The translations under genes were made by a program, and so were the position numbers. Of a stretch of 38,044 nucleotides of DNA, positions 6,102 to 26,227 are shown piece after piece. This DNA comes from an uncultured Planctomycetales bacterium. Its GTDB lineage: Bacteria; Planctomycetota; Phycisphaerae; UBA1845; Fen-1342. A model generated the notes under the pieces. It was not told the DNA's origin. It worked only from the letters and a program-made list of their open reading frames with translations, and did not search any database. Numbering within the stretch: the first letter of the stretch is position 1; each line of letters starts with the position of its first letter. The DNA lies in the NCBI GenBank assembly GCA_964508075.1, contig CAZDTB010000001.1, positions 1-38,044 on the forward strand, in the 5' to 3' direction.

Positions 6102-6833
6102 ATGGACGGCGTGATCAACCTGAACAAGCCGACCGGGATCACCTCCGCCAAGGCGCTCTACCGCGTGCGCAAGATCACCCGGGTCCGCAAGAGCGGCCAT
6201 GCCGGGACGTTGGACCCGGGTGCCGCGGGCGTGCTCCTGCTGTGCCTCGGCAAAGCGACCAAGCTGGTCGAGGCGCTGATGGATCAACCCAAGGTCTACC
6301 GGGCCACCGCCCGGCTCGACGTCACCAGCGAGAGCTTCGACCGCGACCGCCCGCTGATCGATGTGCCGGTTGCGGCGGTACCCGACGCGGAGGGCGTCCG
6401 CGCGGCCTGCGGGCGCTTCGAGGGCGTCATCGAGCAGGTTCCGCCCGCGATCAGCGCCGTCAAGGTTGGTGGGCGACCGGCCTACAAACGCAGCCGTGCC
6501 GGTGAGACCCTTGAGCTCAAAGCCCGAACAGTTCAGGTCTACTGGCTCCACGTTCGCCGCTACGAGTGGCCGACGATCGACTTTGAGCTCGCCTGCGGCC
6601 GAGGAACCTACGTTCGGGCCCTGATCCGTGACCTGGGCACGGCGCTCGGCACAGGCGGCTGCCTCACTGCGCTGACCCGCACCGCCGTCGGCCCGTTCCG
6701 CCTCGCCGAGGCGCATAGCTTCGCCGATCTGGAGAGCGCCGACGGGCAGGAGGACTATCTCATCCCGCTCCAGCGAGCCCGCGATCTGCTGGCCCAACGT
6801 CCGGTCCCAATCCCGCCGCGACCGGAGCGCTGA
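6102..6833 (+). CDS. truB: tRNA pseudouridine(55) synthase TruB
   Basis: 243-aa ORF: MDGVINLNKPTGITS..VRKSGHAGTLDPGAAGVLLLCLGKATK..YRAT..GVIEQVPPAISAVKVGGRPAY. The catalytic Asp lies in GTLDP. Confidence 0.9.
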   Translation: MDGVINLNKPTGITSAKALYRVRKITRVRKSGHAGTLDPGAAGVLLLCLGKATKLVEALMDQPKVYRATARLDVTSESFDRDRPLIDVPVAAVPDAEGVRAACGRFEGVIEQVPPAISAVKVGGRPAYKRSRAGETLELKARTVQVYWLHVRRYEWPTIDFELACGRGTYVRALIRDLGTALGTGGCLTALTRTAVGPFRLAEAHSFADLESADGQEDYLIPLQRARDLLAQRPVPIPPRPER

Positions 6834-6945
6834 ACCCCTAACCCTCTTTGCCCAACTTGTGCGTGCGAAGTGCAGGTCGAACGTGTTAGAATACTTGCGG
6901 GCTCTGGCTGGAGCCCAAGTTGGAAGAGGCGAGGGAGCTTGCGAG

Positions 6946-8094
6946 ATGACACGCCGTTTGTCTGCTTTGTTCGTCCTGAGTCTGGCCGTGGCGAGCGCCG
7001 CCGGTGACGTCCCGCTCCGGATCGTGACGTTCAACACCTACCAGGGGATCGACAACGCGCCTGCCGACCGGGCGGCGTCCGGAAACCTGCTGACCTCGTT
7101 GGACCTGGACGGACCCGGTCCGAACACCAGCCTGATGCCGGATATCGTCTGCCTCCAGGAGACCACCAGCCTGGACGACCTGGAAGACTTTCGCGACGAC
7201 TTTCTGCCGGGGTACCAGGCCCTAAAAGGGCCCACCACCGACGGGTTTTACTCGAACGGCTTCTTCGTGCGGGGCGACTTGAGCGTGCTGAGGTTTGACG
7301 AATTCGGCACGCCGGGACCGCGCCCGGTGCTGCGGCTGATTGTGGACGTCCCCACGACCCCTGAGTATGTGCTGATTTACAACGCGCATTTCAAGGCCGG
7401 GCAGTCCGGCGAGGATCCCGATATCCGCCGCGCTGAGGCCAATGCCATCGCCAACCGCGTGTCGGTCGACCGCGAATTCGGGATCGACGTGGACGGAAAC
7501 GGGACCAAGGAGTTCTTCCCCACGCACTACTTTTTTGCGGGTGATCTGAATCAGGACGACTTCGAAGACGACGTCATCGATGCGCTGCTGGAAGGCGGCA
7601 GCAACGGTCTGCCGACCGGGCTGAACGATGTCCGCGTCGAGACGCTCTACGGTGCCCAGTTTCCGACGTTCCTCGGCAACACCTTCAGCACCCGCACCAG
7701 CCTGAGCAGGCGCTACGATTACGTCCTTGCCAGCGACGAGATCTTCGCCGCCTTCGATGCCAACGCCGACCAGATCGTGGACCAGGACGAGCTCAACGAA
7801 ACGGGCTTCGTCTATATCTCCGGGGACGACGACGGCCTCCAGGCCAGCGGAGATATTGACGCGACCACCGTGGCCTCGGACCACGCCCCGGTCATCGTCG
7901 ATTTCTCAATCCCGGGCATCACCGGCGACCTGGACGGCGATGGCGACGTTGATCTGGCAGACCTCGCCGCCCTCCTCTCGAATTACGGTACCCCCAGCGG
8001 GGCCGGGCCGGAGGACGGCGACCTGGACGGCGACGGCGACGTTGACCTATCGGACCTCGCCGCCTTGCTTGCCAACTACGGGACCGGGCCGTAG
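6946..8094 (+). CDS. secreted endonuclease/exonuclease/phosphatase (EEP) family protein with C-terminal dockerin-type repeat pair
   Basis: The ATG at 6946 (preceded by GAGGGAG) gives the signal peptide MTRRLSALFVLSLAVASAAG. EEP motifs are present: IVTFNTYQGI, DIVCLQET, ..YNAHFKAG.., SDHAPVIVDF. The C-terminus has two DLDGDGDVDL[AS]DLAALL[SA]NYGT repeats. Confidence 0.8.
   Translation: MTRRLSALFVLSLAVASAAGDVPLRIVTFNTYQGIDNAPADRAASGNLLTSLDLDGPGPNTSLMPDIVCLQETTSLDDLEDFRDDFLPGYQALKGPTTDGFYSNGFFVRGDLSVLRFDEFGTPGPRPVLRLIVDVPTTPEYVLIYNAHFKAGQSGEDPDIRRAEANAIANRVSVDREFGIDVDGNGTKEFFPTHYFFAGDLNQDDFEDDVIDALLEGGSNGLPTGLNDVRVETLYGAQFPTFLGNTFSTRTSLSRRYDYVLASDEIFAAFDANADQIVDQDELNETGFVYISGDDDGLQASGDIDATTVASDHAPVIVDFSIPGITGDLDGDGDVDLADLAALLSNYGTPSGAGPEDGDLDGDGDVDLSDLAALLANYGTGP
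7927..8085 (+). repeat. two 22-codon dockerin-type (EF-hand-like Ca-binding) repeats inside the EEP gene
   Basis: 7927-7992 and 8020-8085 encode DLDGDGDVDLADLAALLSNYGT and DLDGDGDVDLSDLAALLANYGT. The two are also closely similar at nucleotide level. Confidence 0.85.
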
Positions 8095-8485
8095 GCGGGG
8101 TCGTTCGCAGCGTCGCGGGATCGTCGGAGCGAAGTTTTTTGCGGACGCCCCACGGTTTGCCCGACCCTCGCCGGCGGCTGGTTCCGGTGGCGCAGACGCT
8201 TTCCCACAACCTGATTCTATGGCCCTCGCGCGTTGATTGGCTCGCCGTCGGGCGCTACGCATTCTCAGACCAGCGGCGCTTAACTGCTTCCAAGTAAAAA
8301 GGTTACGATTCGTTCAAGGGCTGCCCCGGCTCCCGTGCCGGGGAGGATTCAGCAGTCTCGTGCGAACCGCGCGGACCGTTGTCGCGTATGCAAACCGAGA
8401 CCGCGAACGCCCAGGAGCGGCATCTCTCGCCCGGCTCCTGCGGACGCCGTCCGGGCGAACTTCAGAGAACTTTTCGAACTCCGGC

Positions 8486-8515
8486 TTGATTATCCGCGAG
8501 AGGGGGGCCTATCAA
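8486..8515 (+). promoter_or_regulatory. putative sigma70-type promoter of PEP-CTERM gene 1
   Basis: TTGATT (8486-8491), 18-nt spacer, TATCAA (8510-8515). The homologous position in the paralog also carries a TTGAxx/TAxxAx pair, and both sit 18 nt upstream of the conserved leader block. Confidence 0.4.
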
Positions 8516-8533
8516 TCAATGACACCTGTCAAT

Positions 8534-8584
8534 GAGGAGATTGAAGTGATCGGGCGGGCCGATCACCATCTCTCACGGATCCGT
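8534..8584 (+). promoter_or_regulatory. conserved 51-nt leader element, copy 1 (hairpin plus anti-SD-like CUCUC)
   Basis: GAGGAGATTGAAGTGATCGGGCGGGCCGATCACCATCTCTCACGGATCCGT is 49/51 identical to 9599-9649. It contains the hairpin GTGATCGG-gcggg-CCGATCAC at 8546-8566, TCTCTC at 8569-8574, and the palindrome CACGGATCCGTG at 8574-8585. Confidence 0.6.
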
Positions 8585-8602
8585 GCATGGAGAGGAAATC
8601 CA

Positions 8603-9181
8603 ATGCTTAAGAAGTTACTGGCTGCTACCTCGGTTCTTGTTGTAGTCGCGGCGGTTAACGCTCAGCCCGTCGTGAATCTGGTTGATCTGGGCGAATTGAT
8701 CACGGGCACGAGGACGTACGACCTTGTCGTCACCATCCCTGCGGGCGATGACTGGACCGTGTGCGGCATAACCGCCACGCTGGACAACGGTTGGTTCGTC
8801 GACACCGAGACCTACAATCCACCGATGTATGATTACGGGATCGGCGACCCCAATGACAGCTACTTCACCTCGCCGCAGTTCTACCCGAACGCCGCGAACT
8901 TGGGCGCCGTCTCGTTCGCTGACCCGAACGTGGTTATCGAAGCTGCCCAGTTGCGTCAAGGCGATACGTTTGACACCGTCAACACGGGCGGCGGCGACTT
9001 CGTGCTCCACCGCCTGACGGTCGATCCGGACGGCGGCGCGTGGCTGGACGTGGCGGGCGACACCGCGCTGGCGAGCACCGGCGGCACACTCTACCCGTAC
9101 GACTTCCATGTCTGGGTTCCCGAGCCCGGCAGCCTGGCACTGCTTGCGATCGGTGGCCTGGCCCTGATTCGGCGCCGGTAA
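8603..9181 (+). CDS. PEP-CTERM sorting-domain protein, paralog 1
   Basis: The ATG at 8603 is preceded by GGAGAGGA with a 6-nt spacer. Signal peptide MLKKLLAATSVLVVVAAVNA; C-terminus VPEPGSLALLAIGGLALIRRR (PEP motif, TM helix, Arg cluster). The 122 upstream codons of track ORF 8237..9181 are rejected. Confidence 0.85.
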   Translation: MLKKLLAATSVLVVVAAVNAQPVVNLVDLGELITGTRTYDLVVTIPAGDDWTVCGITATLDNGWFVDTETYNPPMYDYGIGDPNDSYFTSPQFYPNAANLGAVSFADPNVVIEAAQLRQGDTFDTVNTGGGDFVLHRLTVDPDGGAWLDVAGDTALASTGGTLYPYDFHVWVPEPGSLALLAIGGLALIRRR

Positions 9182-9221
9182 CAAGGCCTGATTCAGCTAG
9201 CGGACGGCAAACGACATCGAG

Positions 9222-9258
9222 GCTTGGGCGAAACGCAGGGGTCGCCCAAGCTTCTTTT
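9222..9258 (+). terminator. rho-independent terminator of PEP-CTERM gene 1
   Basis: Stem GCTTGGGCGA (9222-9231) / TCGCCCAAGC (9242-9251), 10-nt loop, then TTCTTTT. Confidence 0.7.
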
Positions 9259-9551
9259 ACGCGCGAATCGACATGCTCACCGCCGCTAATTACCACGACG
9301 AGCCCCCGGGGGGGGGCACCGGTGGTCGGGAGTATGTTTCGACACCGCAACGGTGCGAGAAACGGGCCGCACGCACATAACTATTTGCCATTGCGCAGAT
9401 TACAGGCATTTCGCCAGAATCCCGGCAACCCCGCTGGCTATAACGCGACCGAATCCCGGTGCCGCCGGCGAGCGGAGCGCGCCGCAATGGCCAGTGGGAG
9501 CGGCGTGGCTGCCCCCCCGGGAAAAATACGCAGACTTTTCTCAGTTTCGGC

Positions 9552-9580
9552 TTGAAAAACGGGTTCTGATGAGGTAGCAT
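9552..9580 (+). promoter_or_regulatory. putative sigma70-type promoter of PEP-CTERM gene 2
   Basis: TTGAAA (9552-9557), 17-nt spacer, TAGCAT (9575-9580), 18 nt upstream of leader copy 2. The upstream flank (AGACTTTTC..CGGCTTGA) is recognisably homologous to that of copy 1 (AGAACTTTTC..CGGCTTGA). Confidence 0.4.
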
Positions 9581-9598
9581 GGCGTTTGACCTTTCGAG

Positions 9599-9649
9599 GA
9601 GGAGACTGAAGTGATCGGGCGGGCCGATCACCAACTCTCACGGATCCGT
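9599..9649 (+). promoter_or_regulatory. conserved 51-nt leader element, copy 2
   Basis: GAGGAGACTGAAGTGATCGGGCGGGCCGATCACCAACTCTCACGGATCCGT. Hairpin at 9611-9631, ACTCTC at 9634-9639. The reading frame equivalent to copy 1 is closed by TGA at 9650-9652, so the block is not conserved as coding sequence. Confidence 0.6.
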
Positions 9650-9668
9650 TGACAGGAGAGGAAGTCCT

Positions 9669-10292
9669 ATGAAGAAACTACTAGCGTTTGTTACAGTTCT
9701 TGCCTTTGCCATGACGGCGAACGCGTCGATTACCGCCAGCTTGGTGTACAACGGTTCGCCGCAGGGTGCCTGTACGCACACTTACGACGTCCTGGTTACG
9801 GTAGCCGACGATCCGGGCCCCCCGGTCGACCCGGACGACTGGACGGTTGCGGGCATGACGGCCACGCTGACCGGTGCGTGCGTGTTCATCGACACCGAGA
9901 CCTACAACCCACCGCTGTATGATTTCGGGATTGGCGACCCCAATGACAGCTACTTCACCTCGCCGATGTTCTACCCGAACGCCCCGAACTTGGGCGCCGT
10001 CACGTTCGCTGACCCGAACGTGGTTATCGAAGCTGCCCAGATGCGTCAAGGCGATTGGTTTGATACCGTCGACACGGGCGCCGGTACTTTCGTGATCCAC
10101 CGTCTGTCGATCCTGTGCGATCCCTGTCCTCCCGAGCAGGAGTGCTGGATGCACATCGACCTGGAGATCGGTGCCGCGAACACCGGTGGCACGCTGTTCC
10201 CGTACAGTTGGGATGTCCAGGTTTGCATCCCTGAGCCCGCCAGCCTTGCGCTGTTGGCCCTTGGTGGCCTGGCCCTGATTCGTCGTCGTTAA
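9669..10292 (+). CDS. PEP-CTERM sorting-domain protein, paralog 2
   Basis: 207-aa ORF preceded by GGAGAGGA with a 6-nt spacer. Signal peptide MKKLLAFVTVLAFAMTANA. The central block is shared with paralog 1. C-terminus IPEPASLALLALGGLALIRRR. Confidence 0.85.
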   Translation: MKKLLAFVTVLAFAMTANASITASLVYNGSPQGACTHTYDVLVTVADDPGPPVDPDDWTVAGMTATLTGACVFIDTETYNPPLYDFGIGDPNDSYFTSPMFYPNAPNLGAVTFADPNVVIEAAQMRQGDWFDTVDTGAGTFVIHRLSILCDPCPPEQECWMHIDLEIGAANTGGTLFPYSWDVQVCIPEPASLALLALGGLALIRRR

Positions 10293-10327
10293 TACGATCG
10301 AATCCGGCCACAATAAGAAGTAAATCC

Positions 10328-10366
10328 GCTTGGGCGAGTCCCGGGACTCGCCCAAGCTCTTTTTTT
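10328..10366 (+). terminator. strong rho-independent terminator (possibly bidirectional) between PEP-CTERM gene 2 and the convergent glycosyltransferase gene
   Basis: Perfect 15-bp arms GCTTGGGCGAGTCCC / GGGACTCGCCCAAGC (10328-10357) followed by TCTTTTTTT. An A-rich tract upstream could serve the opposite strand. The stem sequence is homologous to the 9222 terminator. Confidence 0.8.
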
Positions 10367-10433
10367 GCGCCGGGCACGGCGCGATGACTCGGCGGATGCA
10401 CCTCCAGCGCCGATCACGTTCCGACGAACGATT

Positions 10434-11669
10434 TCAGGTGGTTTCCGAGGGCCGCGCCCGCGATTGCACAAAGGCCGTCGCGGCGGCGATCTCGACGAAG
10501 GGCATCAGCGGGACGCGGTAGCGTAGCGAGCCGATGAAGACGCAGTGGGCGAGCGTGAAGTAGATCACCGGCAGCCACAGCAGCAGGTGCAGTCGCCGAC
10601 GGGGGGATACTGTTTCGGCGGAGTGCTTCTTTCCGAGCGTGCCGGCTAAGCCGGTGAAGGCGAGCAGCAGCGTGACCACCGTGAATGCGGCACTCACGAA
10701 GCCGGTGATGCCGCCGCGGTAGTCAGAGACGTTTGGTGACGGGCTCCAGGTGCGTCGGAACTTGACCCAGGCGAGCTTCAGCACGCGGCCCGGGTCGCTG
10801 CGCACTTGTTCGATTGCGAGCCTCTGCAATTCACGGTCGCGCTCGACTTCGTTGAGCCCGACGAGTTGGGGAAGCTCCTCGAGGAACGCCTGGTTGCTGC
10901 TGCCGTCGGCTTGTGGACCCTGGGCGTCGTAGAGTGTGACGCCGCCGTTGGTCGAGAGCCACGCCGAGGTGCCGATCATGGCCCGATTGCGCAGCCCCCA
11001 CGGGAGCAGGCAGACGGCCATCACGGCAATGTACAACGCCAATCGTCGTGTGGCGCGCACACGGTGCGAGTCGAAAAGCCACAGGACGACCCACAACAGC
11101 AGCAGCCATCCCGCGGCGGACGGGCGTGTCATCAGTATCGCGGCGCCGCACACGGCTACGCCGTACGTTGCCGCGCGCGATGCCTTCGCGGGATCCGTTA
11201 TCAGCCGCCAGGCACAGGCGGTGAGCGCCACCGCGAACAAGCTGAACGACACTTCCGTCAGCAGCAGATTCGCAAAGAAAATCGCGTATGGATCGAGGCA
11301 CACCAGGATGCCGGCGATCAGAGCGGCGCGCCGGTCGAGCGCCCTTCCTACGAACGAATAGGCGATCCAGGCCGTGGCGGCGCCCAGGAGGGCCTGAAGC
11401 AGGCGGGCGATCAGGATTCCGGTCCCATCTGCCCACGCGCACAACGCCAGGAAGAGCGGGTAGCCCGGCATGCGGGCGGCGTATCGGGCATCGGCGCTGA
11501 CCAGCGTCCCGTCGTGCACGAGGTTACTCGCGAGCTGCCAGTGCAGCTCTTCGTCGGGAAACTCCAGCGCCGCGCCGGTCCTGCTCCAGCGCAGCAGGAC
11601 CCAGGCGACGCGCAGTAGAAGGGCGACGACGAAGATCGCGGACACGAGTCCTGGTGTTTTCGGCTTCAC
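10434..11669 (-). CDS. GT39/GT83-like (ArnT/PMT_2-type) polytopic membrane glycosyltransferase
   Basis: Multi-TM protein with the N-terminal loop ..FPDEELHWQLASNLVHDG..YAARMPGYPLFLA.., typical of dolichyl/undecaprenyl-phosphate-sugar dependent GT-C enzymes. I place the start at the GTG at 11669, which overlaps the tilS TGA as GTGA. The track ORF extends to 11798, inside tilS. Confidence 0.65.
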   Translation of the reverse strand: MKPKTPGLVSAIFVVALLLRVAWVLLRWSRTGAALEFPDEELHWQLASNLVHDGTLVSADARYAARMPGYPLFLALCAWADGTGILIARLLQALLGAATAWIAYSFVGRALDRRAALIAGILVCLDPYAIFFANLLLTEVSFSLFAVALTACAWRLITDPAKASRAATYGVAVCGAAILMTRPSAAGWLLLLWVVLWLFDSHRVRATRRLALYIAVMAVCLLPWGLRNRAMIGTSAWLSTNGGVTLYDAQGPQADGSSNQAFLEELPQLVGLNEVERDRELQRLAIEQVRSDPGRVLKLAWVKFRRTWSPSPNVSDYRGGITGFVSAAFTVVTLLLAFTGLAGTLGKKHSAETVSPRRRLHLLLWLPVIYFTLAHCVFIGSLRYRVPLMPFVEIAAATAFVQSRARPSETT

Positions 11670-26152: not shown

Positions 26153-26227
26153 CGGGGTGTAGCTCAGCCTGGTCAGAGCGCTGCGTTCGGGACGCAGAGG
26201 TCGCTGGTTCAAATCCAGTCACCCCGA
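26153..26227 (+). tRNA. tRNA-Pro (anticodon CGG)
   Basis: Hand-folded cloverleaf. Acceptor CGGGGTG/CACCCCG, D arm GCTC..GAGC, anticodon arm CTGCG-TTCGGGA-CGCAG (anticodon CGG), variable AGGTC, T arm GCTGG-TTCAAAT-CCAGT, discriminator A. No encoded CCA. Confidence 0.9.

Follow-up and report, generated by a model that had tools for sequence, protein, structure and literature searches.

The 38,044-nucleotide stretch of an uncultured Planctomycetales bacterium that we analysed (the whole of it is called the window below) carries at positions 6102-10292 a truB gene, a gene for a secreted Exo_endo_phos protein (EEP) and two adjacent genes, a and b, for small PEP-CTERM proteins. In front of each PEP-CTERM gene lies a promoter followed by a nearly identical leader with a Shine-Dalgarno sequence (SD). 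The leader is real and under selection, and it represents an apparently undescribed family of structured leaders found specifically with Phycisphaerae PEP-CTERM paralogues; it is not a member of any defined RNA family, and by kind it is probably a cis-regulatory mRNA leader. Its parts in the window are as follows.

8486..8515, plus strand: promoter of gene a, with -35 TTGATT at 8486-8491, an 18-nt spacer and -10 TATCAA at 8510-8515 (read from the sequence)
8522..8602, plus strand: leader a, the predicted 5′ untranslated region (5′ UTR) from about +1 to the start codon (covariance model R1, 102 bits on 8521-8605)
8525..8530, plus strand: 5′ pyrimidine tract CCTGTC (CCTTTC in b-type leaders), candidate partner of the SD portion GAGAGG in helix P0
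8536..8573, plus strand: predicted extended hairpin P1a-P1 (RNAalifold on both alignments)
8536-8539 with 8570-8573, plus strand: P1a, GGAG with CTCT, plus TG 8542-8543 with CA 8567-8568
8546-8553 with 8559-8566, plus strand: P1, GTGATCGG with CCGATCAC, loop GCGGG 8554-8558
8574..8585, plus strand: P2 mini-hairpin, the palindrome CACGGATCCGTG (stem 8574-8577 with 8582-8585, loop GATC), presenting ACGGAU
8589..8596, plus strand: SD GGAGAGGA of gene a, complementary to CUCUC and to the 5′ CCUUUC tract
8603..9181, plus strand: PEP-CTERM gene a, 192 amino acids, with Pfam PF07589 and TIGR02595 at the C terminus
9552..9580, plus strand: promoter of gene b, with -35 TTGAAA at 9552-9557, a 17-nt spacer and -10 TAGCAT at 9575-9580
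9586..9668, plus strand: leader b (R1, 104.5 bits on 9586-9671)
9590-9595, 9601-9604 with 9635-9638, 9639-9650 and 9655-9662, plus strand: CCTTTC tract, P1a, P2 and SD of leader b
9611-9618 with 9624-9631, plus strand: P1 of leader b, loop 9619-9623
9669..10292, plus strand: PEP-CTERM gene b, 207 amino acids, with Pfam PF07589

A preliminary description of this DNA had singled out a 51-nt block shared by the two leaders, and its particulars held on re-examination. Positions 8534-8584 and 9599-9649 are identical at 49 of 51 sites (mismatches T/C at 8541/9606 and T/A at 8569/9634), and the block contains the reported 8-bp hairpin GTGATCGG-GCGGG-CCGATCAC (8546-8566 and 9611-9631, as read from the sequence), the CTCTC tract (TCTCTC 8569-8574, ACTCTC 9634-9639) and the palindrome CACGGATCCGTG (8574-8585; 11 of 12 positions in copy b), followed by the SD GGAGAGGA (8589-8596 and 9655-9662) placed 6 nt 5′ of ATG 8603 and ATG 9669. 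The promoter pairs are likewise as described, TTGATT-18-TATCAA (8486-8515) and TTGAAA-17-TAGCAT (9552-9580), with the block 18 nt downstream of each. The statement that the surroundings are far more diverged than the block stood in part: the promoter spacers and signal-peptide codons are indeed poorly conserved, but a 229-nt stretch in the middle of the coding sequences is also 90% identical. By pairwise alignment and a repeat finder, the leader is the best-conserved segment between the gene a and gene b regions (96%), not the sole one. A 42-nt pattern of the block occurs at two places in the window when up to three mismatches are allowed (none expected in shuffles), and no further copy was found in the 38-kb window by pattern search, nhmmer or the covariance model.

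We compared the leader across related metagenomic contigs and metagenome-assembled genomes (MAGs) whose DNA was retrieved (labelled L001-L036). The PEP-CTERM family is small (59 homologous protein clusters at 90% identity, nearly all metagenomic), and its genes lie in conserved synteny, in which truB and the EEP gene are followed by an array of one to eight small PEP-CTERM paralogues. The leader stands 5′ of the paralogues with their own promoter in every retrieved locus (L001-L007, L008/L009, L010/L011, L024-L028, L032, L033-L035 and L036), with three copies in L003/L012. Scanning GTDB (one genome per species) with a degenerate 22-base pattern returned a single matching genome, the Phycisphaerae MAG CSMAG_2420 (JAUWNI010000179.1), whose three matches are all at the truB/EEP/PEP-CTERM locus; a scan of viral contigs gave no match to the leader; and in the sequences scanned the covariance model matched solely upstream of genes of the PEP-CTERM family. 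With all of these copies beside family genes, the proposed dedication of the element to this family is borne out, and as far as these sequences go the leader is specific to one PEP-CTERM family in a narrow, uncultured Phycisphaerae lineage. A protein-based metagenome scan keyed on the generic PEP-CTERM tail yielded two informative loci, L013 and L014 (~35% protein identity), in which GAGGAGG, a P1-like hairpin, a UCU(C) tract and GACAGGAGAGGAA are kept and the CACGGATCCGTG palindrome is missing.

The promoter-less downstream paralogues of the long L008 and L010 arrays have different, shorter hairpin spacers in place of the leader, with a diverged P1, AUGAUCG/CGAUCAU, retained at L008:7216 and L008:7923. 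These spacers (L008 5505-8004, L010 7778-10072) are 69-154 nt long and carry their own conserved GC-rich hairpins and the SD GUGGAGGCAAACC or GGGGAGGACGA; they may serve in processing or stability between cistrons, as elements separate from the main leader.

Since genes a and b are adjacent paralogues, and the 229-nt stretch within them is also highly similar, the identity of the two blocks might reflect nothing but recent tandem duplication or gene conversion between the copies, with no function at all. The comparison across loci speaks against this. Between the window and L003, L008, L010 and L032, amino acid identity is 78-86% for TruB and 71-87% for EEP (the closer L001 and L004 reach 93-95%), the four-fold-type third positions of truB and the EEP gene are 45-63% identical, which is near saturation in this 64% G+C genome, and the PEP-CTERM proteins themselves are 38-58% identical. 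The leader (alignment columns 16-89) is 80-97% identical (66-70% for L032); the b-type leader of L001 is identical to that of the window, and those of L008 and L026 share 97% identity with it. The core is kept in all orthologues while the flanks retain a-specific or b-specific sequences: a-type leaders have a TATCAA promoter, AAACCTGTCAA and ...GTGCATGGAGAGGAAATCCAATG, and b-type leaders have a TAGCAT promoter, GACCTTTCGAGGAGGAG and ...GTTAACAGGAGAGGAAGTCCTATG. Because the a-type and b-type are recognisable in each genome, the a/b duplication predates the genome splits, and the shared core has stayed constant since. With a-type and b-type leaders orthologous across genomes near synonymous saturation, recent copying as the sole explanation is rejected, and we give next to no credence to a functionless block. 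The block instead behaves as the selected cis element that it had been proposed to be, recurring upstream of orthologues and paralogues at all related loci.

The boundaries of the conserved segment are also informative. Core leaders share a promoter of the form TTGAnn-17/18-TAnnnT at a fixed 30 nt (±2) from P1. The b-type promoter is kept in all b-type orthologues at a fixed 30 nt, and that of gene b is the only promoter-like site called by the promoter scan in 8100-10450; the a-type hexamers lie 30 nt from P1 in L001, L003 and L024 and 2 nt further upstream in L008, and their spacer sequence varies. In the cross-genome alignment, conservation starts ~7 nt past the -10 hexamer, at the predicted +1, and the intervening 7 nt vary freely, which is the pattern that would be expected for a function of the transcript. 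By these comparisons, purifying selection on the leader is strong all the way between about +1 and the start codon. The PEP-CTERM paralogues (38-58% amino acid identity) outpace their flanking genes (71-95%), which suggests diversifying selection on this surface-protein family.

Structure was predicted from two alignments, a plain MAFFT alignment of 14 leaders (A3) and a broader 21-sequence alignment fitted to the covariance model (A4), and RNAalifold gave the same result on both: helix P1 (GUGAUCGG/CCGAUCAC), lengthened first by UG/CA and then by P1a (GGAG/CUCU, closed by a conserved G·U). Across P1a, P1 and P2, 93% of the cells of A3 pair, and five pairs show double changes, compared with 1.5 ± 0.7 in shuffles (0/500 as high) and 1-3 in slid controls; A4 has 11 double-change pairs, compared with 3.9 in shuffles and 2-6 in slid controls. 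P1 occurs in the variants GUGGUCGG/CCGACCAC, GUGACCGG/CCGGUCAC and AUGAUCG/CGAUCAU, with compensatory changes from A-U to G-C (L003_a), from U-A to C-G (L010_b) and from G-C to A-U (L008:7216 and L008:7923), and P1a has changed from A-U to U-A in L032, where GGAGAU/AUCUCU has become GUGAU/AUCAC. All three one-sided changes in P1 (L024_a, L032 and L033) produce a sense-strand G·U, and non-wobble mismatches in P1 are absent from the 16 core leaders. The suggestion that CUCUC pairs with the 5′ GGAGA tract and so extends the 8-bp hairpin is thus upheld by covariation; on this comparative evidence the leader forms an extended hairpin in which 5′ GGAG(A) pairs with CUCU(C) as P1a, stacked on the 8-bp P1. 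The smaller P2 (CACG-GAUC-CGUG, the CACGGAUCCGUG hairpin) is weaker: it pairs in ~80% of cells and shows some covariation, its outer pair alternating among C-G, A-U and G·U and an A-U pair becoming G-C in L008_a, but it also has many mismatches. A pseudoknot between the P1 loop GCGGG and a downstream UCCG was considered and rejected, the loop variants GCAAG (L003_b) and GAGGG (L032) being unmatched downstream.

The same repeats could be read at the level of DNA, with GTGATCGG-N5-CCGATCAC and CACGGATCCGTG, at about +25 to +65, binding a dimeric transcription factor that represses both paralogues as a roadblock. The palindromes are perfect, are conserved in sequence beyond mere pairing and stand at a fixed distance from the promoter, and the symmetric double changes in both half-sites (L003_a and L010_b) fit a dimeric operator as well. 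What separates the two readings is the one-sided changes: all three are transitions, and a G·U on the sense strand is a C·A on the antisense strand and breaks the two-fold symmetry of the DNA, so that the pattern, few as the events are, favours an RNA helix of the sense strand over a DNA operator. The nested outer helix P1a, with its conserved G·U, asymmetric internal loop and covariation in L032, is also not what an operator would look like; the conserved stretch is continuous between +1 and the SD, reaching beyond the palindromes; and no regulator gene is conserved at the loci compared. We therefore regard an operator as unlikely. Of the types of control element that had been put forward for the block, the operator is disfavoured by the wobble pattern and a thermosensor has found no support of its own.

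Three further candidates were rejected. A Dam/GATC phase-variation switch of the agn43/pap type would call for an unusual cluster of GATC sites in the regulatory region; the block has three, but the window has one per 115 bp (observed/expected ratio 1.0) and ~20 clusters comparable to that of the block, and the sites are lost piecemeal in orthologues. An intrinsic terminator or attenuator within the leader would consist of P1 followed by CAUCUCUC, which has no U-run, and the terminator scan calls none inside the leaders. A CRP-like site, GTGA-N13-TCAC, has the wrong spacing.

The block might also be translated. In this explanation GAGGAG(GAG), a 6-nt gap and the GUG at 8546/9611 would open an upstream open reading frame (uORF) of 9-13 codons (V-I-G-R-A-D-H-H/Q-L...), whose translation, or termination near the SD, would modulate the PEP-CTERM gene. 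The SD-like tract is indeed at canonical spacing from an invariant GUG; b-type frames stop at codon 10 (UAA/UGA) or 14 (UGA/UAA), with the stop kept through G/A changes; and some changes are synonymous (GAU>GAC, CAU>CAC, CGG>AGG, GCC>GCU, UCA>UCG and CGU>CGC/CGA). The substitutions are, however, not 3-periodic, with second positions varying about as often as third positions, and ~7 synonymous events stand against 11 non-synonymous ones (read from the alignments), among them the non-conservative I>T, D>G, L>H and R>Q. At codon 10 some leaders have Ser and others a stop; in L032 and most a-type leaders the frame continues into the main ORF; and, according to the covariation, the putative SD and GUG are base-paired in P1a/P1, where the same substitutions are explained as compensatory pairs. 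In the window the frame is open from GTG 8546 into gene a (8546-8602) and closed by TGA in copy b, as had been stated; the frame of copy b (9611-9652) stops at codon 14, and several orthologues stop at codon 10. The absence of 3-periodicity and the alternation of Ser and stop at codon 10 lead us to reject a conserved peptide, in agreement with the preliminary description, and to keep an unconstrained translated uORF as a minor rival with a very small chance of being correct.

The leader also flags an annotation error of some gene callers, whose a-type ORF continues upstream through it. In L004 (2154-2813) and L006 (1644-2303), the a-type ORF has been run through it (MKPVNEEIEVIGRADHHLSRIRVWRGNP-MLRKLL...) to give protein P0028 of 219 amino acids; this start call, which places the signal peptide internally, is almost certainly wrong. 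In the window the a-type open frame extends back to TTG 8237.

The SD GGAGAGGA is invariant across the 16 core leaders. Each leader has two purine tracts, GAGGAGGAGA at the 5′ end and the invariant SD GGAGAGGAA, and two pyrimidine tracts, the 5′-terminal CCUUUC/CCUGUC, which is kept in all a-type and b-type leaders, and the internal CUCUC. An anti-SD tract is thus present together with an alternative partner, since CUCUC pairs with 5′ GGAGA (by covariation) and is complementary to the SD (by sequence). CUCUC:GAGAG is compatible in 86% of cells and CCUUUC:GAGAGG (P0) in 77%; the invariance of the SD makes covariation impossible for either pairing, shuffle controls are uninformative, and the low complexity of the tracts makes the slid controls high (57-77%). 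Constrained folds with P1a or with CUCUC:SD differ by -1.5 to +5.7 kcal/mol, and P0 closes a three-way junction P0/P1a-P1/P2 in many minimum free energy (MFE) folds. The probability that the SD is unpaired is 0.24-0.51 in ensemble calculations, an intermediate modelled value that is consistent with tunable access. Of the two-state fold that had been proposed, one half stands, the pairing of CUCUC with the 5′ purine tract, which covaries; the other half, CUCUC with the SD, is compatible in sequence only, the invariant SD blocking a covariation test.

We propose that the leader is a structured 5′ UTR of ~80 nt, transcribed from a sigma-70-type promoter and acting in cis on each PEP-CTERM mRNA. 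The SD would be occluded by the internal CUCUC, which would normally be held in P1a, or by the 5′-terminal CCUUUC/CCUGUC as helix P0, closing the three-way junction of P0, P1a-P1 and P2. In this way the leader would set the accessibility of the ribosome-binding site, and probably the lifetime of the mRNA too, and would co-regulate paralogues that are transcribed separately. The likeliest input would be a trans-acting RNA-binding factor, with the hairpins and GGA motifs as its recognition sites. The stems and hairpin loops are near-invariant, while the P0/P1a junction, the P2/SD linker (3-7 nt) and the internal loop between P1a and P1 differ among leaders both in length and in sequence; with helices and loops conserved and junctions variable, a leader recognised by protein or RNA is likelier than a small-molecule pocket. 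We have good confidence in the narrower claim of a selected, transcribed, structured leader; for the whole explanation, in which a cis-acting 5′-UTR RNA sets ribosome access and probably stability through a trans factor, we judge the case to be about evenly balanced.

Several observations weigh against this explanation. That the block is transcribed is deduced from the promoter and the conservation pattern. P2 is weaker than P1a and P1, with many mismatches (notably in its outer pair), and is lost in the distant L032 and L014, and single leaders have unremarkable MFE z-scores (-0.2 to -1.5). Given the strong conservation, the covariation rests on few independent events, and the A4 alignment was made by fitting to the model. 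At the DNA level each of the helices is an inverted repeat as well, so that the compensatory changes alone are compatible with an operator, and pairing alone leaves the strong primary-sequence conservation of the stems unexplained. The SD-sequestering pairings are without covariation support, and the P1a change in L032 weakens the complementarity of CUCUC to the SD, so the two-state model of the preliminary description is not conserved in every member.

CsrA/RsmA repression would be a specific version of the trans-factor step of our explanation, in which the leader is a GGA platform and a CsrA dimer bridges the P2 loop and the SD and blocks ribosomes. GGA sites occur in GAGGAGGAGA at the 5′ end, in ACGGAU of the P2 loop (8577-8579) and in AGGAGAGGAA at the SD (8589-8596), so that five GGA motifs fall within ~85 nt, conserved in core leaders; the one in the short P2 hairpin loop precedes those of the SD by 11-16 nt. 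CsrA targets have two or more GGA motifs, of which one overlaps the SD and another lies in a hairpin loop 10-63 nt away, and the leader shows this arrangement save in L032 and L014, where P2 is missing. UCACGGAUC resembles the RsmE/CsrA consensus, (A/U)CANGGANG(U/A), and genes for biofilm and surface functions are typical targets of CsrA. The mechanism would, however, leave unexplained why P1 and its GCGGG loop are so strictly conserved, and L032 and L014 lack P2 and its GGA but keep the rest of the leader. SD and P1a function would account for the purine tracts as well, and a global regulator needs no family-specific leader confined to this locus. Known CsrA/RsmA leaders (pgaA, glgC and B. 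subtilis hag) are similar in that several GGA motifs are conserved, of which one sits in a hairpin loop while others overlap the SD, and in that the target is a surface- or biofilm-type gene; they differ in that a long, sequence-invariant P1 hairpin is foreign to CsrA sites and that the GGA hairpin here is lost in distant members. CsrA together with FliW has been reported in Planctomycetes (PMC4682653). CsrA as the factor seems to us quite unlikely.

A passive role, in which a 5′ SD-like tract (STAB-SD-like) and a stable hairpin would shield an abundant mRNA from 5′-end-dependent decay, or enhance its translation, without switching, could account for the GGAGG-like 5′ tract that lacks a productive start codon, for the stability of P1a-P1 and for monocistronic genes with a strong terminator. 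Three contigs of 744-807 nt (L029, L030 and L031; ENA ERZ25073492/493/481), which begin within the leader (at AAGTGATCGG or AGGAGACTG) and end near the terminator, have 98-338x coverage, and longer contigs of the same gene in sister samples (L026-L028) have ~3-4x; if the samples are metatranscriptomes, this coverage may fit a very abundant monocistronic mRNA. A mere stabiliser would not need the invariant loop, stem and SD or the two conserved anti-SD tracts, though, and the 5′ purine tract is paired in P1a, not free for the 30S subunit, with ~12-15 nt preceding the hairpin. The STAB-SD and 5′ stem-loop stabilisers (cryIIIA; S-layer leaders) likewise have an SD-like sequence near the 5′ end, then a stable hairpin and a gene for a surface-sorted protein, but the SD-like tract of the present leader is base-paired, and sequence constraint extends over the leader's full length, a difference that suggests specific recognition rather than generic protection. 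Passive stabilisation is, in our view, quite unlikely too.

The leader had not been recognised as a known RNA family, and comparison of the whole window with Rfam 15 at gathering thresholds (including RF01051, RF01786, ROSE/fourU, JUMPstart and Rhodopirellula-1) gave no match to it. In E-value mode, 8200-9800 and the two 121-nt leaders returned noise (E >0.5; 7-20 bits against gathering scores of 33-70); an sX11 match at 9214-9374 on the minus strand (E = 0.54) was dismissed as a chance match on the terminator region. A full-text literature search found no RNA motif or UTR element described for PEP-CTERM genes. The closest arrangement is in Methylophaga nitratireducenticrescens GP59, where three adjacent PEP-CTERM genes and a nearby VPLPA-CTERM gene each lie behind a cyclic di-GMP (c-di-GMP) riboswitch (PMC12530212). 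The two systems share adjacent small PEP-CTERM genes with one copy each of a cis-regulatory leader RNA, c-di-GMP-I (GEMM) in GP59; the present leader is smaller and unrelated to GEMM-I/II, and its conserved helices and variable junctions are unlike a ligand pocket. It could still be imagined as the aptamer and expression platform of an undescribed small riboswitch class of Phycisphaerae/Planctomycetota, sensing c-di-GMP or another envelope or biofilm signal, in which binding of the ligand would make the three-way junction P0/P1a-P1/P2 close over the SD, with a GEMM-like function. The leader alignments do not have the conserved unpaired junction nucleotides and freely covarying helices generic to riboswitches, and we find this reading very doubtful.

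In its suggested logic the leader resembles those with SD, anti-SD and anti-anti-SD segments, such as the expression platforms of translational riboswitches and of 5′ UTRs under the control of proteins or small RNAs: 5′ GGAGA and the SD GGAGAGG compete for CUCUC in near-isoenergetic folds, and a second pyrimidine tract, at the 5′ end, could also pair with the SD. It differs from them in that only the SD-free pairing (P1a) has covariation support.

Downstream of the two PEP-CTERM genes lie two related hairpins.

9222..9251, plus strand: hairpin after gene a, GCTTGGGCGA...TCGCCCAAGC followed by TTCTTTT (repeat finder, families D5 and I1; read from the sequence)
10328..10357, plus strand: intrinsic terminator after gene b, a 13-bp stem followed by TCTTTTTTT (terminator scan)

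The first, which was not called by the terminator scan, is likely an intrinsic terminator that would make gene a monocistronic. The two have the stem GCTTGGGCGA...TCGCCCAAGC in common and differ in their apical parts, AACGCAGGGG and GTCCCGGGAC, each of which is self-complementary, and homologues in L014 and L026 end with the same type of terminator. Further upstream, the C-terminal end of the EEP protein (6859-8094) is encoded in part by two 93-nt tandem repeats (7923-8085) for GDLDGDGDVDLxDLAALLxNYG, dockerin/EF-hand-like calcium-binding modules (weak Pfam Dockerin_1 and EF-hand matches). At gathering thresholds Rfam matches the window just once, at a tRNA gene (26153-26227) that is unrelated to the leader.

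PEP-CTERM/exosortase proteins are widespread environmental surface proteins whose regulation is poorly understood, and almost nothing is known of post-transcriptional control in Planctomycetota. The element described here is well delimited, with one copy per independently transcribed paralogue, near-invariant while the proteins diversify, and covariation supports part of its structure. Should it prove to be a regulatory RNA, it would be a new family for RNA databases and would offer an entry point to the signal that controls a surface-protein family in an uncultured lineage.

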